64,000 bases of DNA, taken from an uncultured Latescibacterota bacterium (GTDB lineage Bacteria > Latescibacterota > UBA2968). The stretch is taken from the NCBI GenBank assembly GCA_951812755.1, contig OX638329.1, positions 293,339-357,338 of the forward strand, written 5' to 3'. Of this stretch, positions 3,234 to 16,249 are shown piece after piece. Under the pieces are notes generated by a model. The model was not told the DNA's origin and ran no database searches. It worked only from the letters and a program-made list of their open reading frames with translations. The position numbers were made by a program, and so were the translations under genes. Numbering within the stretch: the stretch's first letter is position 1; each line of letters starts with the position of its first letter.

Positions 3234-3815
3234 CTACCATGAAAAATCAGCAATCCGAAGCTCAAACCCCGGCAACTGATCAGAAGTATAAACATCGCCC
3301 TCTCCCAATTCCCGAGCCAGATAATCGTGCTCTCCACGCGAAAGAACCGTAACAACCCGCCGAAAGGGATCGACAATGACGTATTCTGCCACACCTATAT
3401 CAAAATATTCTCCACGCTTCAAAATATAATCTCGCTCCTCGCTCCCCCTGCTCACAACCTCAAAAACGAGATCGGGAACCAGATCGTAAATATGGTCAGC
3501 AGACACATCGTCTAAATACACGGCAATATCACCAACCCGATCCGTCTGGTCCGAAGTCCGTATCCAGCCCTCGGGCGCAATGAGTTCAATCATCTCTGAA
3601 TGGGTATGTCTATAGACGTAGAGCCTCTCGAGAATTTCGGAAACCACCTGCATATGCGGCAAATCGCTCGGCTCCATCACAACCAATCTCTTTTCCACGC
3701 GCTCATACCGATAGGGCGCATCCCACTCCGCCTCGGCAAACTCCTCGTCCGTCAGAAACCGCCCCTGATCTTTTAAACCCAATTTCAAGTGTGTTTTTGT
3801 CATAATACTCACCAT
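3234..3815 (-). CDS. Uma2 family (DUF820) PD-(D/E)XK endonuclease
   Basis: About 190 aa. Typical Uma2 layout (..YRYERV.G.LVVM.P....H...V..I...L ... PDLVFEVVS....RDY..K...Y...GV.EY.IVDP). Tandem paralog of the next gene. Confidence 0.7.
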   Translation of the reverse strand: MVSIMTKTHLKLGLKDQGRFLTDEEFAEAEWDAPYRYERVEKRLVVMEPSDLPHMQVVSEILERLYVYRHTHSEMIELIAPEGWIRTSDQTDRVGDIAVYLDDVSADHIYDLVPDLVFEVVSRGSEERDYILKRGEYFDIGVAEYVIVDPFRRVVTVLSRGEHDYLARELGEGDVYTSDQLPGFELRIADFSW

Positions 3816-4402
3816 CCCAGATTGGCAATTGGCAGTTCAAACCCTGGCAATTGATCAGAAGTATAAACATCGCCCTCTCCCAATTCCCGATCCAGATAAT
3901 CGTGCTCCCCACGCGAAAGAACCGTAACCACTTTTCGAAAGGGGTCGACAATCACATATTCTGCCACCCCCAGATCGAAATACTCCCCACGCTTCAAAAT
4001 ATAATCTCGTTCTTCGCTCCCTCTGCTCACAACCTCGAAAACAACGCGGGGAATCCTTTCGTATTGTTGATCGGACTGCGGCTCATCTTCCGTGAGATAA
4101 ACGCCGATATCCGCCATGCGATCCTGTCCTTCCCCAGTGCGAATCCACGCCTCTGTCGCTGCCATTTCAATCATTCCCGGATGGGCTGCATCGTAAATAG
4201 AGATCTCTTTCACAACAGCCCATACCAACCCCAAATGCGTCTTACCACTTGGCGACATAACCACAAGCCTCCCTTCCACGCGCTCATATCGATAGGGCGC
4301 ATCGCATGCCGCTTGGGCAAACTCCTCGTCCGTCAGCAACCGCCCCTGATCTTTCAAGCCCAATCTCAATTTTGTCTCCAGCATAGCCTGACCTCCGTTC
4401 AC
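3809..4402 (-). CDS. Uma2 family (DUF820) PD-(D/E)XK endonuclease, second tandem copy
   Basis: About 60% identical to the 3234-3815 product. It overlaps its neighbours by 7 nt and 4 nt, so it is translationally coupled within the operon. Confidence 0.7.
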   Translation of the reverse strand: MNGGQAMLETKLRLGLKDQGRLLTDEEFAQAACDAPYRYERVEGRLVVMSPSGKTHLGLVWAVVKEISIYDAAHPGMIEMAATEAWIRTGEGQDRMADIGVYLTEDEPQSDQQYERIPRVVFEVVSRGSEERDYILKRGEYFDLGVAEYVIVDPFRKVVTVLSRGEHDYLDRELGEGDVYTSDQLPGFELPIANLGW

Positions 4403-5918: not shown

Positions 5919-6269
5919 CTTGAAGTTGTTAATGAGAATTTGTTCGATGTCCTCGTTGAGCTATTTTGTCGCGGTCAGACCAAACATGTGCTGAACTTGA
6001 TTCAGTAATCTTTAGCAACTGCTTTTGTTTTTCAAGTTGTTATTTTTTTTCGGGAAAACAAATCCATTGTTCGCAGTCTCTCCCCGTCTCTGCGATTGGG
6101 ATTTCTCACCTAAAGTTTTCCCGATTTGTTATCTAAAAACAAAACCCCACACTCATTTTTCAACCCTCCCCGTTGTGGTTTTTATGCAGCGGTTATGGGT
6201 TTATTTTTTCTGCGAGAACACGCAGGAGCAGGCTCCTATTGGTTCTCGGCTGGTATTTGGGAGGCAGGC

Positions 6270-9161
6270 ATGGCCGAAATAGTTGACGCTTTACTGGAAG
6301 CGGTTGGTTTTGCGGTACGCAAACGCGATGGTCGAATCGTCGATTTTGACCGCGTGCGCATTGAACGCGCGATTGAGGCAGCATTTAGAGCCGAGTTGGG
6401 GTTGTCCAACGATCATTCATTGCCGCCCAAAATTGAAACCGATGTGTCGGGACTCACCGACGCTGTTATTGCTGAAATTGAAGATGAATTGCACGAGCCG
6501 GATGACAGCGTGGATGTCGAACGCATCCAGGACAAAGTCGAAATCCAGTTGATGCGTGCAGGACATTTTGCGGTCGCGCGACGCTACATCGTCTATCGAG
6601 AAGACCACAAAAAAGCCCGCGTACTCAGCGGCCAGGAAGAACCCCAGGACCCCAACGCACCCAAACTCCGCGTACAAACAGCCGATGGCAAGCGCGAACC
6701 CCTGGATGCCAACCGCATTCGCACCGAAGTATTTGCCGTCTGCGATGACGACGTAGATCCTCAAGACCTGCTCAATGAGATATATCGCTCCCTCTACGAC
6801 GACATCAAACCCGACGATATTGAACGCGCCATGATCCTGTCAGCGCGCAGCCGCGTGGAAAAAGAACCCGCCTATAGCAAAGTCGCAATGCGCTTGCTCC
6901 TCAACGTAATCTATCGCCACGCCCTGGGATTCAAACCCGCGCTTGAAGACAGGGACACAGCATGTCAGCAGGGATTTGCAAAATTTATTGAAACGGGCAT
7001 TGAAAACGACCGTTTAGATCCCAAATTGCGCACTTATGATCTGGAGCGTCTATCTGAAGCCTTAAAACCCGAGCGCGATGAAGACTTTGAGTACCTGGGC
7101 GTACAAACGATCTTTGATCGCTACTTGCTCCACGTCAACGAGCGCCGCATTGAAACCCCGCAGTTCTTCTGGATGCGCGTGGCCATGGGCCTGTCCTGGG
7201 ACGAATATGACAAAGAGGCACGCGCCATTCAATTTTACGAAGTACTCTCTTCCTTCCGATTTGTCTCTGCCACGCCCACCCTGTTCAATGCCGGCACCCT
7301 GCATCCGCAGTTGTCCTCGTGTTATCTGTCAACCGCGCAAGATGACCTGGAACACATATTCAAAATGGTATCCGACAATGCCAAATTGTCCAAATGGGCT
7401 GGCGGTCTGGGCAATGACTGGACAAATGTGCGCGCGACAAATTCCTATATCCGCGGCACAAATGGCAAAAGCCAGGGCGTCATTCCATTTTTGAAAGTCG
7501 TGAACGATACCGCAGTTGCCGTCAACCAGGGCGGAAAACGCAAAGGCGCGGTATGCTCCTATCTGGAAACCTGGCACCTGGACATCGAAGATTTTATGGA
7601 ACTGCGCAAAAACACGGGCGATGACCGCCGCCGCACGCACGACATGAACACGGCCAACTGGATCCCCGACCTGTTTATGAAGCGCGTCATGGAAAAGGGA
7701 ACCTGGACTCTGTTCAGCCCAGATGAAGTCCCCGACCTGCACGATTTGTACGGCAAAGCCTTTGAAGAAAAATACCTCGCGTATGAACAAAAAGCCGAAG
7801 CCGGTGAACTGCAACAACATCGCCAGATCGATGCCGTGCAACTGTGGCGAAAAATGTTGTCCATGCTCTTTGAAACCGGGCACCCGTGGATCACATTTAA
7901 AGACCCGTCCAATATCCGCTCTCCGCAGGATCACGCGGGCGTTGTCCACAGCTCGAATTTGTGTACTGAAATTTTGTTGAACACGAGCCGCGAAGAAACC
8001 GCAGTATGCAACCTCGGCTCTGTAAATCTCGTGGCGCATATCACACCCACGGGCCTCAACCGCGAATTGCTGGAAGATACAATATCCACAGCGCTTCGGA
8101 TGCTGGACAACGTAATAGACATCAACTTTTATCCCACAGAAGAAGCCGCCACATCCAACAAACGCCACCGTCCAGTGGGCCTGGGCATCATGGGATTTCA
8201 GGACGCGCTATATCTGTTGAATTTGCCCTACGATTCGCAAGGCGCGGTTGACTTTGCCGACGTGAGCATGGAAATGATCTCGTATTACGCGATCCTATCC
8301 TCAACGCACCTGGCCGAAGAACGCGGCACATATCACTCCTACATCGGTTCAAAATGGGACCGCGGCATATTGCCCATCGATACCTTGAAGATATTGGAAC
8401 AGGAACGGGGGTCGTACTGTGAAGTGGATATGTCCGCGCGCCTGGACTGGAATATAGTGCGCGAGGCAGTCGCCGAACACGGCATGCGAAACAGCAATGT
8501 CATGGCCATTGCCCCAACCGCCACCATATCGAATATCTCGGGCGTGACGCAGTCCATCGAGCCGATGTATCGCAACCTGTATGTAAAAGCAAATCTGTCC
8601 GGTGACTTTACAGTATTAAATCCCTACATGGTCGATGCCCTGAAAGCGCGCGACCTGTGGGACGACCAGATGGTAGATGATCTGAAGTATTTCGATGGCT
8701 CAGTCCAGGAAATTGACCGTGTGCCGCAAGACATAAAAGCACTCTACAAAACCGCATTCGAAGTGGCACCCGAGTGGCTCATCGAATGCGCCAGCCGCCG
8801 ACAAAAATGGATCGACATGGGCCAATCGCTGAATCTGTACATCGCAGCCCCCAGCGGCAAGGCACTGGACGACATGTACAAACTCGCCTGGGTGCGCGGG
8901 CTAAAGACCACGTACTACTTGCGCTCGCTGGCAGCGACCCAGATCGAGAAATCCACCATGGACATCAACAAACGCGGCGTCCAGCCCCGGTGGATGCAGT
9001 CCAAATCCGCTTCGAGCGATGTGCAAGTGCAACGCGAAGATGCACCTGTAGAAACTGACGCGTCTCTCAACGGGCAGGTACACCACGAGACCCCTGCCAC
9101 ACCAGGCCCAACGGCTGCATCCTGCGATATTACAGACGGGACATGTGAGGCGTGTCAGTAA
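6270..9161 (+). CDS. nrdA: Ribonucleoside-diphosphate reductase large (alpha) subunit, class I, with N-terminal ATP-cone
   Basis: ATP-cone ([20 protein letters not shown]). Catalytic motifs [18 protein letters not shown] and [11 protein letters not shown]-terminal redox Cys pair ([12 protein letters not shown]). I place the start at ATG 6270 with GGAGG 6 nt upstream; the track ORF from 6126 is an in-frame upstream extension. Confidence 0.9.
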
Positions 9162-9193
9162 AAAAAGAAAGGGACGTGCTATGAACACGTCCC
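9160..9193 (-). terminator. Intrinsic terminator reading on the minus strand (stem gggacgtg / cacgtccc followed by a T-run on the minus strand)
   Basis: An 8-bp perfect stem at 9171-9178 and 9186-9193 with an A-run at 9160-9170 on the plus strand. It sits between the convergent nrdA and the minus-strand small-protein operon. Confidence 0.5.
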
Positions 9194-9365
9194 GATCACA
9201 ATAAATGACCTTGGCTAAAGACATCTATAATTTGCTACATCCCAAAGGTATTTGGCAAGGCTTCATAGAGGAGATGAATATGCGCTGAAAAGGGGAGCAG
9301 TTTATCTATCTCGGACCATTTTGGAGCAGACCACAATAAATTCTGGTGATTTTGAACGACCTCAC

Positions 9366-9659
9366 CTAATTTTTCGTCTCCGAGCGACTAAAACATCTGA
9401 ATAGACCGACTATAGATACATAGATGATGGCAATACCACCTACAAGAATCGCAAATCTATGGTCACTGAATTCTCCAAACGCTATATCCTCTAAAAAAAG
9501 GACACTATATCCGAGAAATAGTCCGGTATCAATCCCAACACCGATTGCAACAACAGAAACAAGTTTTGGAAGATCAGGAACTTCTTTACGCAAGCCACAG
9601 ACTACACAGTAAATCAAAAGAAACACTATACCGAGAATCAGCCCTCTATTTATTGTCAT
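9366..9659 (-). CDS. Small membrane protein of about 97 aa with 3 predicted TM helices. Last gene of the Panacea-associated operon.
   Basis: Hydrophobic segments LILGIVFLLIYCVVCGL, LVSVVAIGVGIDTGLFLGYSVLFL and FAILVGGIAIIYVSIVGLF. The start overlaps the upstream stop by 4 nt. AT-rich (about 42% GC). Confidence 0.5.
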   Translation of the reverse strand: MTINRGLILGIVFLLIYCVVCGLRKEVPDLPKLVSVVAIGVGIDTGLFLGYSVLFLEDIAFGEFSDHRFAILVGGIAIIYVSIVGLFRCFSRSETKN

Positions 9660-9997
9660 TGCTCTCTACTTTCCACCCAGTATCCGCACGAACCCCCGAT
9701 AATACTTCCAATGACAATCCCTAACATTCCAAAAGAGCTACCAGCCATCAATCCGCCTATAAGTCCGGCGACCGCGAGTGCATGCGAAGCCATAGAAGAG
9801 GTCTTGGATTGTTGAATCTGGTTATCACGGTTGACAGATGCACTTTCTTGATTGAGCTCTTGGGATTCTTTCGGTAATTCCTTAATAGTGGCAAAGACCG
9901 CATCTTCAATAGTGGCAAAGACCGCATCTTCAGTACGAGTTTGAATTGTCTCTCTTGATTGTTCTGGTCGAATATCTAATTTTGAGAGTTCTCCCAT
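9656..9997 (-). CDS. Small protein with a C-terminal glycine-zipper transmembrane domain. Candidate membrane-targeting toxin (PanT-like).
   Basis: The C-terminus reads ALAVAGLIGGLMAGSSFGMLGIVIGSIIGGSCGY, i.e. repeated GxxxG. The N-terminus is polar and carries a duplicated EDAVFATI. The ATG sits directly after the upstream stop (TGATG junction). Confidence 0.5.
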   Translation of the reverse strand: MGELSKLDIRPEQSRETIQTRTEDAVFATIEDAVFATIKELPKESQELNQESASVNRDNQIQQSKTSSMASHALAVAGLIGGLMAGSSFGMLGIVIGSIIGGSCGYWVESREQ

Positions 9998-10543
9998 TTA
10001 TTGACCTCCTATTCTATTCAGGTAGTACTCTCTTATGACCTTATTCGGTATGTGTGCATTTCTAAATCCATTCCTTCTTTTCCATGTTTTATCCCAGGGT
10101 GTGTCTTCTCTATGTGTTATATCAGAAAGCTGTAACCCTGTATATTCTCCGTAAACTTCCCAAATCTTATTTAATAAAGCACTGGGGAATTCATCGTTTG
10201 GATCTATCTTCGGAGTTATAGATTTTGTGTCGAGTTTTCCCCTATCATCATCGTATGAAAACTCAATATCTTTTGCAAACTCTGTTATTGGATCCCCACC
10301 AAAGCGTTTGAAATGATGGTAAAGTGATGGAAATACCGGACCATATTGCCAAGCCTCGGCGAACTCGTCGTCAACTAACGGAAGACCGTCAGACGAGTTA
10401 TCTCTTGCGGTGAAAGCGAGATGATACCCGTGAGCGATATACACAAGTTTTTGTATCATCAATGGTGTTATTTCAACACCATCCTTCTTACCAAGGTCTA
10501 AAAAGTAATTTGCCACAGCAAATGCAGAGTAACCCATATACAT
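9998..10543 (-). CDS. Panacea domain (DUF4065, SocA/PanA-like) protein. Putative antitoxin.
   Basis: N-terminal motif AVANYFLDLGKKDGVEITPLMIQKLVYIAHGYHLA...PLVDDEFAEAWQYGPVFPSLYHHFKRFG matches the DUF4065 signature (VANYFL... KLQKLLYYAqGwhLa .. F.AW.yGPV.p.lY). The likely start is the third codon, ATG at 10537, with AAGGAG 6 nt upstream. Confidence 0.6.
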   Translation of the reverse strand: MYMGYSAFAVANYFLDLGKKDGVEITPLMIQKLVYIAHGYHLAFTARDNSSDGLPLVDDEFAEAWQYGPVFPSLYHHFKRFGGDPITEFAKDIEFSYDDDRGKLDTKSITPKIDPNDEFPSALLNKIWEVYGEYTGLQLSDITHREDTPWDKTWKRRNGFRNAHIPNKVIREYYLNRIGGQ

Positions 10544-10675
10544 CTCCTTGATTACTCTCTCATCAGAACGGGAGAGGGGGATTATTAGATTATATTATTT
10601 ATGTTATTATAGGGAATTGCGATATAATAACATAGAAAGGAAGTGGGATCATGTCAAGGAGTTTAACCAACGTTT

Positions 10676-10725
10676 CTAACGCTTCTAACGCGCCCAGATA
10701 TGCTAACGCTACGAACATACTAACC
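10676..10725. promoter_or_regulatory. Iteron-like direct repeats: CTAACGC repeated 3 times plus one CTAACC. Candidate operator upstream of the Panacea operon.
   Basis: ...ttctaacgcttctaacgcgcccagatatgctaacgctacgaacatactaacc... at 130-190 bp upstream of the minus-strand panA-like start. Confidence 0.35.
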
Positions 10726-10837
10726 TACAAATCTACCGACGCCGTAACACCGGCATCATTGGCTATAGCCTTCTGATTTTTATTCAAAATTAAGTAATGA
10801 AACCACACTATTATGGAATAATTATTCGATTTATTAT

Positions 10838-10871
10838 TCTGCTACTTTAAGATATAACTTAAAGTAGCAGA
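10838..10871 (+). terminator. Perfect 14-bp stem hairpin (tctgctactttaag-atataa-cttaaagtagcaga) in an AT-rich block (about 25% GC), followed by a T-rich tract
   Basis: Read directly from the sequence. There is no plus-strand gene immediately upstream, so the hairpin could instead be a recombination or att-like site at the junction of horizontally acquired segments. Confidence 0.35.
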
Positions 10872-10958
10872 GACAAATTTGGAATTTTTATTTTGCGTAT
10901 GTAGATGGCGGCTTTAAGCAAAGAGGCCGGATGGCTCACAAGGGTAGTCCGGCTTTTC

Positions 10959-11209
10959 CTATGAATCTAACAGGCGCTCAAATTCATCGAGACTGGACAC
11001 CTGAACCGCCGCGCGGAGCAACTGCTTGAGGCGTTGCAAATCTTCGATAGTCGCAATGCGAGTAGATAGGGGGTCTGCTTCGTGCAGATCAAATCTCCAA
11101 CACTTCGAGGATATCTTCAATGGCGCATTGTCTGCCCCTGCTCAATACCTTCTTCAATGCCTTCTCGCTTAAATTGCTGAATAAGGGATGATTCGCGGAT
11201 GATATCCAT
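10959..11209 (-). pseudogene. Frameshifted remnant of a DUF4351 / Rpn-family (PD-(D/E)XK transposase-like) protein C-terminal region
   Basis: Minus-strand reading from ATG (complement 11207-11209, AAGGAGGG SD): MDIIRESSLIQQFKREGIEEGIEQGQTMRH* then, after a frameshift, ..IEDILEVLEI* then, after another frameshift, ..DPLSTRIATIEDLQRLKQLLRAAVQVSSLDEFERLLDS*. The EEGxEQG repeat and the C-terminal tail are typical of DUF4351 proteins. Confidence 0.5.
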
Positions 11210-11257
11210 GATGCCCTCCTTCAAAATAATATCAGAAATAGTTTCGGATATGTCCTC

Positions 11258-11372
11258 AATATGCTGTATTGCACCCTTTTTTTTAACTTGAATTTGTGGA
11301 TCGTCTGTTTGGCGTAAAACAATCTCTGTATATTTTGAACGATAAATGGGCGGTCATGTGAAAGATATGTAC
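11258..11372 (+). repeat. Dispersed intergenic element of about 115-135 bp, copy 1 (CAATATGCTGTATTGC ... TTGTGGATCGTCTGTT ... GTATATTTTGA.CGAT.AAT ... GTGAAAGATATGTAC)
   Basis: Collinear blocks of 16, 16, 11 and 15 bp are shared with 35815-35944, in the same order and orientation. Confidence 0.6.
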
Positions 11373-11467
11373 CACTTGTCCATTTGTCCGCCGCGGTGGT
11401 TCTTGCGTAACATCAGTTATATTCAGGGTAGGTCAGAGTATTTTTTTGATTATAAGTCCTTTTTAGG

Positions 11468-11497
11468 GTTGACAGTACGCGAGTACTTTTACTATAA
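11468..11497 (+). promoter_or_regulatory. Near-consensus sigma70 promoter: TTGACA, an 18-bp spacer, then TATAAT. The spacer contains the perfect 12-bp palindrome GTACGCGAGTAC.
   Basis: ttgacaGTACGCGAGTACttttacTATAAT lies about 240 bp upstream of the ATPase gene at 11735. It faces the plus-strand gene string 11735 to 16249 (ATPase, peptide ORF, ATPase, DUF4276, nrdB). Confidence 0.55.
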
Positions 11498-11646
11498 TAA
11501 GCACGTCTTTACCACAACATTTTGTGCTCTTTTTTCGTTAATTACAAAATATTGTGGCGTAAATAAAAGCACAGCAATAATTTAAAGCGATTCTCCAATC
11601 GCTTTAAGACCTCCCCTCGTCTTCCCCTGACGGCTCCTTACGGTCC

Positions 11647-11724
11647 ATCGCACTGGCGACCTTATTTTTTTTAGCTATATTCGACACAGTCATCTTTTCG
11701 GCAAAATGACCAGATTGCTCATCC
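11647..11724 (+). repeat. Decayed remnant of the 3-prime end of a second ATPase cassette copy, ending in the 27-bp direct repeat (DR1 at 11698-11724)
   Basis: 11647-11667 equals 12428-12448 (inside the gene). 11681-11697 equals 12588-12604 (inside the gene). 11698-11724 equals 12772-12798 (just past the stop). The order and orientation match the intact gene, with about 330 bp of intervening sequence deleted. Confidence 0.6.
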
Positions 11725-11734
11725 GAATTTCACA

Positions 11735-12763
11735 ATGCCTGCTCTTGACAACATTACCATCAAGGGCTTCAAGAGCATCGGTTCTATTGAGAACTTGAAG
11801 CTCGGCCCAATTAACGTCTTGATCGGGCCGAATGGATCGGGCAAATCAAACTTCATTGAGGTCTTCTCCTTCCTGCGCGAAATCACCTCGGATAGGCTGA
11901 AGGATTATGTGAACCGCGCTGGTGGGGCCGACAAAATTCTGCATTTCGGTTCCAGAACAACTGAAGAACTGATCATTGACATCTCATTTGACGACATAGC
12001 AAATCGGTACACGATCAGGTTGCACGCAACGGATACCGACATGCTATATCTGTCTTCAGAGTCTGACCGCTTCTGGAACGCCCACTCGGATTCCGATATC
12101 CGCAACCATCCCGATAGGTGGCGCGTTTATCACTTCCATGACACAAGTTCCACATCGCCAATGCGGAAAACCGCCGATGTAAACGACAACCGTTATTTGC
12201 GATCCGATGCTTCCAACCTATCGGCGTTTCTGTACTACTTGCATGAGACGCATGAAGCGTCATACAACCTGATTCGCCGCACAGTGCAGCAGGTCGCGCC
12301 ATTTTTTGATGATTTTCTCCTCCAGCCGCTGGCACTAAACAACGACAAAATCCACCTCGAATGGCGTCACAAGAAATCCGAAGCGTACTTTGATGCTTCT
12401 TCGCTCTCTGACGGCTCCCTGCGATTTATCGCACTGGCGACCTTATTTCTTCAGCCAGAGCCGCTTCGTCCATCCATTATTCTATTGGACGAGCCAGAAC
12501 TTGGACTACACCCCTATGCGACCGCCATGTTGGCTTCGCTTGTAAAACAGGCATCCGTCAAGACTCAGGTCATTCTTTCGACACAGTCATCTTTGCTAAT
12601 CGATCACTTCCAACCAGAAGATGTGCTCGTGGCTGAACGGGTAGATGGACAAACGCAATTCACAAGGCTCAACGCAATTCGCCTGAAAACATGGTTAGAG
12701 GACTACAGCCTCGGCCAACTCTGGGAAAAAAATGAGATAGGTGGGCGTCCCGTAGTGGAGTAG
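11735..12763 (+). CDS. AAA family ATPase (AAA_21/ABC-type, OLD/AbiL-ATPase-like). Orphan, with no nuclease partner.
   Basis: Walker [17 protein letters not shown]-loop and signature region. Walker B IILLDEPELGLHP. D-loop and H-loop TQVILSTQS. 342 aa. Confidence 0.8.
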   Translation: MPALDNITIKGFKSIGSIENLKLGPINVLIGPNGSGKSNFIEVFSFLREITSDRLKDYVNRAGGADKILHFGSRTTEELIIDISFDDIANRYTIRLHATDTDMLYLSSESDRFWNAHSDSDIRNHPDRWRVYHFHDTSSTSPMRKTADVNDNRYLRSDASNLSAFLYYLHETHEASYNLIRRTVQQVAPFFDDFLLQPLALNNDKIHLEWRHKKSEAYFDASSLSDGSLRFIALATLFLQPEPLRPSIILLDEPELGLHPYATAMLASLVKQASVKTQVILSTQSSLLIDHFQPEDVLVAERVDGQTQFTRLNAIRLKTWLEDYSLGQLWEKNEIGGRPVVE

Positions 12764-12771
12764 ATAGAGAA

Positions 12772-12798
12772 TCGGCAAAATGACCAGATTGCTCATCC
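12772..12798 (+). repeat. 27-bp exact direct repeat (DR2) TCGGCAAAATGACCAGATTGCTCATCC, 9 bp past the ATPase stop. Identical to DR1 at 11698-11724.
   Basis: Exact 27/27 match read from the sequence. The two copies bracket the gene with 10-bp and 9-bp margins. Confidence 0.85.
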
Positions 12799-12972
12799 TT
12801 GCGCTCGCTAAACTGATTAACTGACATTACACACAGTAGTTAAAAAACGAAAAACCAAACTATTACAGGGGATTGAGGTTCGACTCTCCTTGTTTTCTCC
12901 GTTCTTAGTTCCGTTGCTATCTCCTTAAAATGGATCAGTATTAAATCTACGAGTTTCATTAGGGAGGTTAAT

Positions 12973-13074
12973 ATGAAAAATTTGGCTGTTTTTATTAGTG
13001 CGATTTCTGAAATAGCATGTACTATAATATGTACTATCGGAGTTAACATCCTGGGGAGTCCCCTGTCTCAATAA
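12973..13074 (+). CDS. Putative 33-aa hydrophobic Cys-containing peptide (MKNLAVFISAISEIACTIICTIGVNILGSPLSQ)
   Basis: Strong SD AGGGAGG 5 nt upstream of the ATG. The hydrophobic core is long enough for a single TM helix. It lies between the two ATPase genes. The ORF track lists no plus-strand ORF here because it is under 60 aa. Confidence 0.35.
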   Translation: MKNLAVFISAISEIACTIICTIGVNILGSPLSQ

Positions 13075-13134
13075 GCTATTTAACAGGCAATGCCATTCTG
13101 CTTAAAGATGCGTAATGTCAGTGACTAAAAAGAG

Positions 13135-14406
13135 ATGAACCTAACAACTTCACAATACACAGCACCGGCGCGGATCGAGTATTTGAAGGTGCAGAACTTT
13201 CGTGCGTTGCGGGAAGTTGAGTTCAAGGAATTGACACCGCTGACTGTGTTGCTCGGTCCCAATGGCAGCGGGAAATCAACAGTATTTGACGTATTTGCGT
13301 TTCTATCGGAATGCTTTGAGTCGGGTTTGCGTCGCGCCTGGGATCAACGTGGCCGTGCCAAAGAACTGCGGACGCGCGGCAACATCGATCCCGTTGTCAT
13401 CGAACTCAAGTACCGCGAACAGCCGGGCACGCGTCTGATCACTTATCACCTGGCTATTGACGAAGACCGCAACCGCCCCGTTGTCAAGGAGGAATGGTTA
13501 CAATGGCGGCGCGGCCAACACGGCAGACCATTCCGATTTCTCGATTATCGCGAGGGACAGGGCAGAGCGGTCAGCGGTGAGCAACCCGACGAATTGGACA
13601 CGCTTTACTCGGGACCGATCCAATTAGACCCGCGCAACGAGGTACCGCTCCAATCGCCCGACCTGCTGGCAGTCAATGCCCTGGGGCAATTTGCCGATCA
13701 CCCGCGCGTAGCAGCACTGCGCGACTTCATCACCGGATGGCATGTGTCATACCTCTCGGCAGACAGCGCACGAGGCCAGCCCGAAGCAGGACCTCAAGAG
13801 CGACTGTCTAAGAGCGGCGACAACCTTGCCAATGTCATACAGCACCTTGCAGAACAATACCCCGAGCGACTTAACCAGATCTTTGAGGTGCTACGCCAGC
13901 GGGTGCCGCGCATTGAGCGCGTGCTATCAGAAGTCATGCCCGATGGTCGCTTGTTGTTGCAAATTAAGGACGCACCGTTCAGCAACCCGGTGCTGGCGCG
14001 ATTCGCTTCTGATGGCACATTGAAAATACTGGCTTACCTGGTGCTATTATACGACCCCGAACCGCCGCCCTTCATCGGCATCGAAGAGCCGGAAAACTTC
14101 TTGCACCCTCGATTGCTTCCGGAACTTGCCGAAGAATGCCGTGCGGCCTGCGAGCGCACGCAGTTATTGGCGACCACGCATTCGCCATTTTTCCTGAACG
14201 CACTGCGTCCCAAAGAGGTCCGCGTCCTCTGGCGCGACGCGGAGGGGTACACACAAACACGCCGAGTCGCAGATATACCCGGCATACCGGAATTTGTCGA
14301 AGAGGGTGCATATCTTGGCCATCTATGGATGGAAGGATATTTCAATCTGGGAGACCCGCTGGACAGACATGGTGAACCGACTCCTCCTCTGGAGGGACGC
14401 GGGTGA
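13135..14406 (+). CDS. AAA family ATPase (AAA_21 / OLD-family ABC-like ATPase). ATPase component of a two-gene split-OLD / AbiL / PARIS-like module.
   Basis: Walker [17 protein letters not shown] and Walker [14 protein letters not shown]. 423 aa with a long inserted region between the motifs, as in OLD/AriA/GajA-type ATPases. A 4-bp ATGA overlap joins it to the next gene. Confidence 0.8.
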
Positions 14407-15023
14407 TGACGGCACAACATCTGGAATTACTCGTTGAAGAACCCTCAATGGAGGCCTTCTTGCGAGAGCTATTGCCGCGTATGCTGCCTGCGGAATGCAC
14501 ATTCAAAATTCATCCGTTTCAGGGGAAGCCAGACCTGTTGGACAAGTTGCAAAATCGTCTGCGAGCCTATGCAAAATGGTTACCCGACAACTATCGCATC
14601 TTCGTAATCGTTGACCGCGATAACGACAACTGCGAACAATTAAAACAAAAACTTGAAAACATTGCTTCTCGGACTCAACTGCTCACCCGCTCACAGGCCC
14701 GTAGTCGTCTCTGGCAACTGGTCAACCGTATCGCCATTGAAGAACTGGAGGCATGGTACTTTGGTGACTGGCAGGCGGTGTGTAATGCCTATCCGAGGGT
14801 TTCAAAAAAAATTCCAAATCAGGCACGCTATCGCCACCCCGATGCAATCCGCGGAGGCACATGGGAAGCTTTCGAACGCATCCTGAAGCGACATGGCTAC
14901 TTTAAAACTGGACTACGCAAAGTGGAGGCTGCCAGAGACGTTGGCATTCATATTGATTCTAATCGTAGCCGTTCGCACAGTTTTGTGAAATTCCGCGAAG
15001 CCATCATTGAGGCAACTGCTTGA
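14403..15023 (+). CDS. DUF4276 family protein (Toprim-like predicted nuclease partner of the ATPase)
   Basis: 206 aa. The N-terminal [19 protein letters not shown] (acidic EE after a beta-strand) and the later [11 protein letters not shown] (DxD) fit a Toprim-like E...DxD arrangement. The size and the ATPase-then-DUF4276 gene order are typical of this family. The assignment is from memory. Confidence 0.55.
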
Positions 15024-15061
15024 ACCATTATTGTATCTCATTTTTTTAAAGGAGTTGTAAT

Positions 15062-16249
15062 ATGTCTAAGCTCATATTTGAAGACGAAGACGTTGAAAGT
15101 CAAGCAAATATGGACTACAAGGATGGTGGTCACGCGGAGCAAAACGGCATTCATGCGTCCGTTGAAGCGGATAATACTGACGTACCCTCCGCGCTGTGTT
15201 GTGGTGCCACTGGCGAGGCGTATGACCTGACCAGGCGCATCAACCCGGAAGACAAGCGATTGCTCAACTGCCGGCAGGTGGATGTAAACCAGTTGATGCC
15301 CCTCAAATACGAATGGGCATGGGAACACTATCTCAACGGATGTGCCAATCACTGGATGCCGACAGAAGTACCGATGCAGCGCGACATAGAACTCTGGCGT
15401 TCAAATGCCCTGAACGACGCCGAGCGAAAAGTCATCTTGAGAAACCTCGGATTCTTCAGCACGGGCGAAAGCCTCGTCGGTAACAACATCGTACTCGCCA
15501 TCTTCAAACACATCACAAACTCCGAAGCGCGACAATACCTCTTGCGCCAGGCATTTGAAGAAGCCATACACACCCACACATTCCACTACATCGTCGAATC
15601 CCTGGGCCTGAACGCACGCGAAGTATTCAACATGTATCACGAAGTCTCGTCCATCGAAGGCAAAGACAAATTCGTGATGGAACTAACCGAAGACGTGTTA
15701 GATCCCAACTTCTCAACACAAAGCATTGAAGGCATGCAGAAATTCGTGAAAAATCTCGTCGGATTTTACGTCATCATGGAAGGCATATTCTTTTACAGCG
15801 GCTTTGTCATGATCCTCTCCTTCCATCGGCAAAACCGCATGACCGGCATTGGCGAACAATTCCAGTACATCTTGCGCGACGAGACCATTCATCTGAATTT
15901 TGGCATTGACTTAATCAACACCATCAAATCGGAAAACCCAGAAATCTGGACAACGGAACTGCAACGCGACATCTACGACCTCATCCACGAAGCCGTGGAA
16001 TACGAAGTAATCTATGCACGGGATTGTGTGCCCGACGGCGTACTGGGCCTCAATGAAGACTTATTCCGCGAATACGTGCAATTCATCGCCGACCGTCGGT
16101 TGGAACGAATCGGCCTGCAAAGCGTATATGGATCAAAGAATCCTTTCCCGTGGATGGGAGAAACCATTGACATCGCAAAAGAAAAGAACTTCTTTGAAAC
16201 GCGCGTAACAGATTATCAAAGCGCGGGATCCTTACAGTGGGATGATTAA
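15062..16249 (+). CDS. nrdB: Ribonucleoside-diphosphate reductase small (beta) subunit, class I
   Basis: [16 protein letters not shown] and the di-iron ligand helices ([30 protein letters not shown]). AAAGGAG SD. Only 38 bp separate it from the DUF4276 stop. Confidence 0.9.

Follow-up and report, generated by a model that had tools for sequence, protein, structure and literature searches.

The window, the 64-kb stretch of DNA that we analyzed, contains an intact gene for an ABC ATPase (ATPase1) that is bracketed by two identical copies of a 27-nt sequence, TCGGCAAAATGACCAGATTGCTCATCC (the 27-mer). Upstream of the first copy are fragments of a second copy of the ATPase gene. All of this lies in the gap between nrdA and nrdB. 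The features of the region are:

6126-9161, + strand: nrdA, which encodes the large subunit of ribonucleotide reductase and forms the island's left border (an open reading frame; ATP-cone and Ribonuc_red_lgN/lgC domains in the related loci L093 and L104)
11469-11498, + strand: sigma-70-type promoter-like site (TTGACA, 18-nt spacer, TATAAT), predicted from 12/12 matches to the consensus only
11505-11616, + strand: conserved leader with two hairpins, at about 11512-11557 and 11582-11607
11617-11676, + strand: pseudogene fragment a of the duplicated ATPase copy, matching 12398-12457 (54-56 nt in sister alleles)
11680-11697, + strand: pseudogene fragment b of the duplicated ATPase copy
11698-11724, + strand: upstream 27-mer, a dead copy of the spacer and of the first 19 nt of the partner gene DUF4276-1 (ATG at 11706), with junction J1 at its 3' end (TCC at 11722-11724)
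11735-12763, + strand: ATPase1, an intact HEC-01A-type ABC ATPase of 342 amino acids, identified by its matches to PADLOC and Pfam profiles
12772-12798, + strand: downstream 27-mer, the native spacer and the first 19 nt of DUF4276-1 (ATG at 12780), which is cut off here at junction J2
12799-13134, + strand: filler TTGCGCTCGC and a 322-nt block that replace DUF4276-1 (the block is found in the window and in L091 only)
13135-15023, + strand: second complete HEC-01 system, with ATPase2 at 13135-14406 (423 amino acids) and DUF4276-2 at 14403-15023 (206 amino acids)
15062-16249, + strand: nrdB, which encodes the small subunit of ribonucleotide reductase and forms the island's right border (all allelic loci match Ribonuc_red_sm)

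Among the PADLOC profiles, ATPase1 matches HEC-01A (PDLC04175) with E = 4.4e-134 and 445 bits, which is the best match by a wide margin; Old follows at 2.2e-17 and AriA at 4.9e-29. In Pfam, the protein matches AAA_21 (5.7e-31). HEC-01 stands for Hma-embedded candidate 01 in PADLOC-DB v2, and it derives from genes that are embedded in Hma systems (bioRxiv 10.1101/2024.01.29.577857). It is a candidate only: in the single published test, it did not protect E. coli from any of the phages that were tried (Payne et al., bioRxiv 10.1101/2024.01.29.577857). The system pairs an ABC ATPase with a DUF4276/TOPRIM protein, and by its profile matches, ATPase1 is the A subunit of this candidate system. One paper assigns DUF4276 to the TOPRIM superfamily (PMC12065111), and in another, it is among the partner domains used to label a tree of defence ATPases of the AAA15/21 type (PMC11464382).

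A look-up of the exact ATPase1 sequence gave no record, but a homology search showed that the family is very widespread and well conserved. The relatives of ATPase1 at 94-99% identity are all 342 amino acids long, and dN/dS is about 0.1 across nine alleles (dS ranges from 0.004 to 0.27). The contigs with these alleles come from the same kind of population, and the nearest named genomes are Candidatus Latescibacterota MAGs. One allelic MAG from NCBI carries the label Gemmatimonadota. From the ankyrin-repeat, sulfatase, and TPR genes in the window, our impression is that the host population is probably sponge-associated.

The two copies of the 27-mer, at 11698-11724 and 12772-12798, are its sole matches in the window with up to 3 mismatches allowed, and the number of matches expected by chance is 0. 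The upstream copy ends 10 nt before the start codon of ATPase1 (ATG at 11735), and the downstream copy begins 8 nt past its stop codon (a TAG that ends at 12763). Farther upstream, 11647-11667 is identical to 12428-12448 (21 nt), which lies 333 nt before the stop codon of ATPase1, and 11680-11697 matches 12577-12594, which lies 184 nt before the stop codon, at 18 of 18 positions. The 21-nt match is enclosed by a 44-nt match at 86% identity (11627-11670 versus 12408-12451), and comparison via related alleles extends the homology to about 60 nt (~11617-11676 versus 12398-12457). The three blocks of homology are collinear, with offsets of 781, 897, and 1074 nt. In the 45 nt nearest to the start of ATPase1, formed by the 18-mer and the 27-mer, there are no differences between the copies within the window; the next fragment is 14% different.

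All of the exact matches in the original prediction, namely the two 27-mers and the two upstream fragments, are present in the window. The order and the identity of the fragments are as it described, but the distance of 345 bp that it gave for the first one is slightly off, and the second is 18 nt rather than 17. The prediction also took the upstream stretch to be the 3' end, now collapsed, of what was once a second, head-to-tail ATPase gene, and the collinear fragments upstream of the first 27-mer bear this out.

The 27-mer is explained by the gene that usually follows the ATPase. Among 80 homologous loci that we fetched from GTDB species genomes, 77 have a DUF4276 gene within a few bases 3' of the ATPase. 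Closer to the window, an intact DUF4276 gene for 231-235 amino acids follows ATPase1 and the native 27-mer in L002, L003, L085-L089, L104-L107, and L110, and nrdB comes next wherever the contig reaches that far. The downstream 27-mer consists of the last 8 nt of the spacer between the ATPase and DUF4276 genes and of ATG ACC AGA TTG CTC ATC C, the first 19 nt of the DUF4276 gene (encoding MTRLLI). The native start of the gene reads ...GCTCATCC|ATGTCGAGG, where the bases after the bar begin with ATGTC, and in the alignment the gene of L002 and L003, for 231 amino acids, runs on past the 27-mer as ATGTCGAGGGCGAAACC. The same start, with one to three changes, is found in L004 and L005, whose ATPases are 79-83% identical to ATPase1. 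Because this sequence opens the DUF4276 genes of sister alleles and of relatives at 79-83% identity, the 27-mer is an ordinary gene start and not a recombination site.

In the window, ATPase1 has no adjacent DUF4276/TOPRIM gene; 19 nt of it are left (12780-12798). Such a partner does follow the ATPase in L002, L003, L085, L089, and L104, as it does in the window's second system (13135-15023). These loci, and the 77 of 80 GTDB loci, agree with the earlier claim that the surviving ATPase lacks its usual nuclease partner. The description of it as an orphan fits to the extent that its own partner is missing, but a complete second HEC-01 pair lies 371 nt downstream.

Homology to DUF4276-1 ends right after the 27-mer in the window and in L091, and homology among all haplotypes returns about 25 nt before the start codon of nrdB. 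Neither tblastn nor blastn found a remnant of DUF4276-1 in 12799-13134. One alignment of this stretch suggested a weak similarity to DUF4276-1, which looks like chance. The stretch encodes a predicted hydrophobic protein of 33 amino acids (12973-13074, with GGGAGG as the predicted ribosome-binding site), and there are 14-nt inverted repeats at 12820-12833 and 13109-13122. We considered if the 322-nt block might be a repeated mobile element and rejected this: L091 has the only other copy among the window and the fetched loci. In L001, most of DUF4276-1 is gone through other deletions than in the window, so there were at least two independent losses of the gene, one in L001 and one in the lineage of the window.

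We then asked where the upstream remnant came from. The remnant and its own 27-mer are present in the window and in L001-L003, L084-L086, L088, L089, L092, L094, L102, and L110. Among the 80 GTDB loci, no more distant relative has a remnant-plus-27-mer repeat upstream of the ATPase. (The distant locus L037 has a 34-nt self-match, which is unrelated to the remnant.) Several close alleles also lack the remnant. In L104-L107, the order is nrdA, a small GIY-YIG gene, 121 nt, ATPase1, DUF4276-1, and nrdB, and in L090, nrdA is followed by three small ORFs and ATPase1.

These unduplicated alleles reveal the native sequence before ATPase1, which is ...GGTGTCCGAATTTCACA|ATG in L104. The junction in the window, J1, reads ...GCTCATCC|GAATTTCACA, and the native upstream sequence ...TCCGAATTTCACA overlaps with it at TCC. 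Compared with the native flanks, J1 fuses DUF4276-1 at position +19 with ATPase1 at position -13, and the two sides have the TCC in common. Such a junction is expected if a 1,074-bp segment was duplicated head to tail through microhomology. The remnant is 84-88% identical to the ATPase1 of its own clade, 81% identical to that of L005, and 74% identical to that of L004; that it is nearest to its own clade fits a duplication in place. Overall, the locus has what is expected of a tandem-duplication scar: a collinear head-to-tail copy, a junction with TCC microhomology, and unduplicated alleles (L104-L107 and L090).

All carriers of the remnant share one deletion junction, in which position -169 is joined to position +9 relative to the stop codon (a 177-nt deletion), so the remnant has a single origin. 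The window-type remnant retains about 60 + 18 nt of the ATPase copy. L001 keeps 129 nt of the copy that are gone elsewhere (84-88% identical to the ATPase1 of the clade) and is missing a different piece, so the copy kept eroding along separate paths in different lineages. The leader and the remnant differ by 2-29% among alleles, which is a range like that of the synonymous divergence of ATPase1. We read the remnant as neutral sequence.

The gap between nrdA and nrdB varies in many other ways. The second system in the window matches HEC-01A at 1.1e-163 and HEC-01B at 4.4e-87, and DUF4276-2 matches Pfam's DUF4276 at 3.8e-31. ATPase2 and ATPase1 share just 24% identity, and the DUF4276-1 and DUF4276-2 proteins have no significant similarity by BLAST. 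L091, from an independent assembly, is 99.25% identical to 12660-15191 of the window. L093 (a 5.9-Mb contig), L095, and L096 have the second type of pair only, 13 nt after nrdA, while L110 has both HEC-01 systems with a TIR-domain gene between them. The ATPase has been lost in some strains, and the whole system is missing in still others. Given this varied gene content across contigs, the gap is a hypervariable island with at least 8 haplotypes.

One of these haplotypes bears directly on the repeats. L092 (a 78-kb scaffold), L094, and L102 have the leader, the remnant, and one 27-mer, followed by TTGCGCTCGC-ACATTAT; the contig of L102 ends within the last of these bases. ATPase2 and DUF4276-2 come next in L092 and L094, and in L092 these are followed by nrdB. 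Relative to the window, these loci are missing exactly 11725-12798, which is the 1,074-bp unit, as well as the 322-nt block. Thus, the suggestion that the unit between the repeats comes and goes holds up: it is a true presence/absence polymorphism, with the unit gone exactly from three loci. The unit-less haplotype fits the expected product of recombination between the two 27-mers, and it could also be the substrate of the reverse event.

We think that the region is probably a rearrangement scar in a two-gene, candidate HEC-01-type defence operon, and that the repeats have no function of their own. In the first step, which is strongly supported by the alleles, an ancestor with ATPase1 and DUF4276-1 would have undergone a 1,074-bp head-to-tail duplication of a segment that began 13 nt upstream of the ATPase start and ended 19 nt within DUF4276-1, with its junction at the TCC microhomology. 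As a result, each copy of the ATPase would have been followed by the same 27 nt (spacer plus MTRLLI). Second, as seen by comparing alleles, the upstream copy of the ATPase, which had only a stub of DUF4276 behind it, eroded by successive deletions. Third, DUF4276-1 was lost directly after the 27-mer in the window's lineage, where unrelated sequence and the second HEC-01 pair come next; this loss left the surviving ATPase1 bracketed by two identical stubs. Finally, the haplotypes suggest that the two 27-mers can serve as substrates for ordinary homologous or slipped-strand recombination.

A few observations are awkward for the scar. DUF4276-1 is broken at the same nucleotide at J1 and at J2, within the 3-nt microhomology, and two independent illegitimate events would rarely coincide this closely. 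Also, just after the upstream 27-mer, L001 has ATGTC in place of GAATT, which is not simply accounted for by one junction event. And the perfect identity of the 45 nt, next to sequence that has diverged by 14%, could reflect gene conversion or mild constraint. Reasoning from the sequences, we tried gene-conversion and template-switch scenarios for the coincidence of J1 and J2 and for the ATGTC of L001, and none fitted cleanly. Selection on the end of the stub, gene conversion, or a local hotspot for breaks are possible explanations for the three observations.

The order of the haplotypes could also be reversed. The haplotype without ATPase1 (leader, remnant, 27-mer, TTGCGCTCGC, second-type pair) might be the older state, with a type-1 operon that was almost wholly deleted, and a 1,074-bp circle with one 27-mer, looped out of a duplicated allele, might later have integrated at the resident 27-mer by homologous recombination and so restored ATPase1. 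The identity between the sequence right of the second 27-mer and the unit-less haplotype would then be explained for free. The unit-less haplotype is an established lineage, as three separate contigs have it and each has substitutions of its own. Also, the population is strongly mosaic: in L094, for instance, the type-2 block is 99% identical to that of the window, and the leader only 92%. However, the circle still needs a duplicated allele as its source, so the first duplication would be required in any case. Furthermore, 27 nt is very short for integration, while deletion between short direct repeats is common, and no circular form was observed. We view re-insertion as rather unlikely.

A stronger proposal is that the repeats are more than a passive scar, and that they let the ATPase-only unit loop out and re-enter by recombination. 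If so, a population could toggle the ATPase of one defence operon, or place the ATPase before another system, and the clustering of three junctions at one nucleotide (after CTCATCC) would mark a preferred site for breaks or crossovers. We doubt this strongly. The small probability that we leave to a switch-like reading comes from the coincidence of J1 and J2, the ATGTC of L001, and the 45 nt of identity.

It is very unlikely, we believe, that the remnant was co-opted to regulate ATPase1 as a 5' leader, either via the short reading frame whose start codon is the copied ATG (11706) and which overlaps the start of the ATPase gene, or via RNA structure. The remnant does lie between a perfect match to the consensus promoter and the ATPase start; at the position of this promoter-like site, L002 and L003 align with TTGACT-N17-GATAAT. 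The fold of the leader scores better than folds of shuffled sequence (z = -3.35), and the 45 nt beside the ATPase start are identical to their sources in the window. But the conserved hairpins are upstream of the remnant, outside the remnant itself, and the level of variation in the remnant among alleles is about that of silent sites. The ATPase-DUF4276 pair of L104-L107 and the ATPase1 of L090 have no remnant at all. As for the short reading frame, its third codon is a TGA in L084 and L085, and L089 has a changed sequence there; because of the early stops, we rejected it as a functional frame. The same leader stands before the type-2 ATPase in L092, L094, and L102. The stems of the hairpins are nearly invariant across nine alleles, and no compensatory changes were seen; the alleles are too similar to show covariation. 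Rfam had no match in the whole window at gathering thresholds, and a relaxed scan of 11200-13200 gave matches at the level expected by chance.

The original prediction favored another view, in which the ATPase gene is a mobile cassette in an integron-like array that is losing members, with the 27-mer as the site of a site-specific recombinase. The exact bracketing of the gene and the presence of the unit in some haplotypes but not others are what a cassette would show, and three different sequences (DUF4276-1, ATPase1, and TTGCGCTCGC) follow the 27-mer, all breaking at the same nucleotide. But rather than a cassette boundary or attC-like site, the 27-mer is the spacer plus codons 1-6 of the partner gene, native even in relatives at 79-83% identity, and in the GTDB loci the 27-mer sequence occurs solely as the start of DUF4276. 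There is no palindromic attC-like structure in the 27-mer and its flanks: folding both strands of both copies as single-stranded DNA gave z-scores of +0.44, +0.47, -0.12, and -2.03, and no paired arms like those of an attC. The prediction proposed looking for an integrase nearby, and a Pfam scan of 37 ORFs spread over the 64-kb window found no integrase (including IntI), recombinase, or transposase. It also proposed that the 27-mer might flank other genes in metagenomes. In the JGI metagenomes, the 19-nt core was found at one related locus and in five unrelated, chance contexts, so it is not a recurring neighbor of other genes. Microhomology such as the TCC at the junction is typical of illegitimate recombination, which also argues against a site-specific recombinase. 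We consider a cassette to be highly improbable.

It is hardly credible that mis-joined reads from different strains produced the repeats and the remnant: several strains do occur in the same samples (L090 and L094 are from one sample) and the scaffold of L088 is interrupted by Ns at the repeat, but the same structures are found in independent assemblies, each with its own substitutions (some appear to be long-read, judging by name, with coverage up to 86x), including L091 across 12660-15191 and at least 10 other contigs with the remnant, and judging from these contigs the arrangement is not an assembly artefact.

If the region is a scar, as we favor, then it is a concrete case of the natural decay of a candidate defence system with two genes, one for an ABC ATPase and one for a TOPRIM protein, and the series of intermediates could help studies of the turnover of defence islands. 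A further lesson, for annotation, is that a defence gene flanked by perfect direct repeats is not necessarily a mobile cassette. The importance of this case is modest, and it opens no long-standing question. Common mechanisms suffice to explain it (partial tandem duplication, erosion of a pseudogene, loss of a partner, and recombination between direct repeats), and it adds one more example to a known class of events.

Among known systems, HEC-01 is the closest: ATPase1 matches HEC-01A, the neighboring pair matches HEC-01A and HEC-01B, and the sister alleles have the order ATPase, then DUF4276. ATPase1 in the window differs in keeping a mere 19-nt stub of the partner. The OLD-family nucleases and their split relatives (Old from P2, GajA of Gabija, and AriA/AriB of PARIS) share the combination of an ABC ATPase of the AAA_15/AAA_21 type with a TOPRIM nuclease. 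In Old and GajA, the TOPRIM domain is fused to the ATPase, whereas ATPase1 has no fused TOPRIM. We rejected the idea that ATPase1 is a single-polypeptide (class 1) OLD-family nuclease, as all Pfam matches of the 342-amino-acid protein are of the ATPase type and none is to TOPRIM. Membership in PARIS was rejected as well: the score for AriA is far below that for HEC-01A, and the partner family in the sister alleles is DUF4276, while the AriB partner in PARIS belongs to DUF4435.

Like an integron cassette, ATPase1 is a single, promoterless-looking gene between repeats whose presence varies. Unlike integrons, the window lacks IntI, an attC hairpin, and an array of unrelated cassettes, and the repeat is coding sequence from a neighboring gene. 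The closest parallel for the process is microhomology-mediated tandem duplication, followed by the decay of a pseudogene and by deletion between direct repeats; the window and its relatives provide the junction, the eroding fragments, the unduplicated alleles, and the unit-less haplotype. Nothing essential differs from such known cases. What is unusual is that so many of the intermediates have been kept side by side in metagenomes.

The genes nrdA and nrdB are neighbours as a rule. In one population, which is represented by the window and by the fetched loci L001-L003, L084-L097, L102, and L104-L110, the gap between them (9161-15061 in the window) has at least eight haplotypes. Across these haplotypes, the genes in the gap include HEC-01 types 1 and 2 (each pairing an ABC ATPase with a DUF4276/TOPRIM protein), a KAP NTPase, Prok-E2/JAB, SIR2, TIR, PIN, a DDE transposase, GIY-YIG, and Panacea. 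The nrdA-nrdB gap is a hypervariable defence island.

Features of the window and of related alleles (window positions unless a locus is named)
3234-4402, minus strand: two adjacent Uma2-family genes in tandem, 193 and 197 aa
9366-10543, minus strand: three-gene unit
11512-11557 and 11582-11607: two leader hairpins, nearly invariant
12809-13130: AT-rich block of 322 nt, which occurs only in the window and in L091
32994-42547: two DUF6785/DUF6784 paralogues, 648 and 674 aa
L104 2490-2834, also in L105 and L106: GIY-YIG-domain gene, 114 aa, weak Pfam hit

In three alleles (L093, L095, and L096), 13 nt separate nrdA from the start of the type-2 ATPase, and in L093, the DUF4276 gene ends ~40 nt before nrdB. 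The type-2 HEC-01 pair thus probably shares a transcript with nrdA and nrdB.

At 11469-11616, the window has a perfect match to the consensus promoter and, downstream of it, a conserved leader. The same leader lies 5' of ATPase1 in some strains and 5' of ATPase2 in others. Its fold has a z score of -3.35; Rfam gave no match, and we found no covariation in the hairpins among the alleles.

The GIY-YIG gene, which has nrdA on one side and ATPase1 on the other, occurs in alleles without the duplication scar (the eroded remnant of a second ATPase1 copy). Another allele, L110 (3039-8141), carries both types of HEC-01 in damaged form: ATPase1 has lost an internal segment, ATPase2 is broken into ORFs of 108 and 306 aa, and DUF4276-2 is deleted. 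Between the two systems are a gene for a 230-aa protein and a TIR_2/DUF2513 gene.

At the downstream junction, the filler TTGCGCTCGCT (12799-12809) has an exact 11-nt match within nrdA (8919-8929, in codons for YLRSL), ~3.9 kb upstream of the junction. By a rough estimate, the chance of such an identity is ~3% for the window; the filler might be templated from nrdA, or the match might be a coincidence. In the allele L001 (5535-5569), the upstream repeat is 3 nt longer at the 3' end. At this point L001 has ATGTC, matching the DUF4276 gene, and all other alleles have GAATT or AAATT; the total length is unchanged relative to those alleles. A single junction event does not account for this variant.

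Inverted repeats of 14 nt (12820-12833 and 13109-13122) bound the 322-nt block, which encodes a 33-aa hydrophobic peptide, MKNLAVFISAISEIACTIICTIGVNILGSPLSQ (12973-13074), preceded by a strong GGGAGG ribosome-binding site. Two possible readings are a small membrane toxin and a miniature insertion.

Beyond the island, the Uma2 pair (putative restriction endonucleases) lies just upstream of the nrdA region. Genes for TPR proteins lie interspersed with the DUF6785/DUF6784 paralogues, and one of these TPR proteins also carries a PMT_2 glycosyltransferase domain; this stretch is a repeated module.

Within the island, the minus-strand unit at 9366-10543 opens with a gene for an antitoxin-like protein of 181 aa that has a SocA/Panacea domain (2.1e-17). 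The next two genes encode small proteins: one of 113 aa that has a hydrophobic, glycine-rich tail, and one of 97 aa that contains hydrophobic stretches. The unit, which is also found in L102, resembles a toxin-antitoxin module of the Panacea type.
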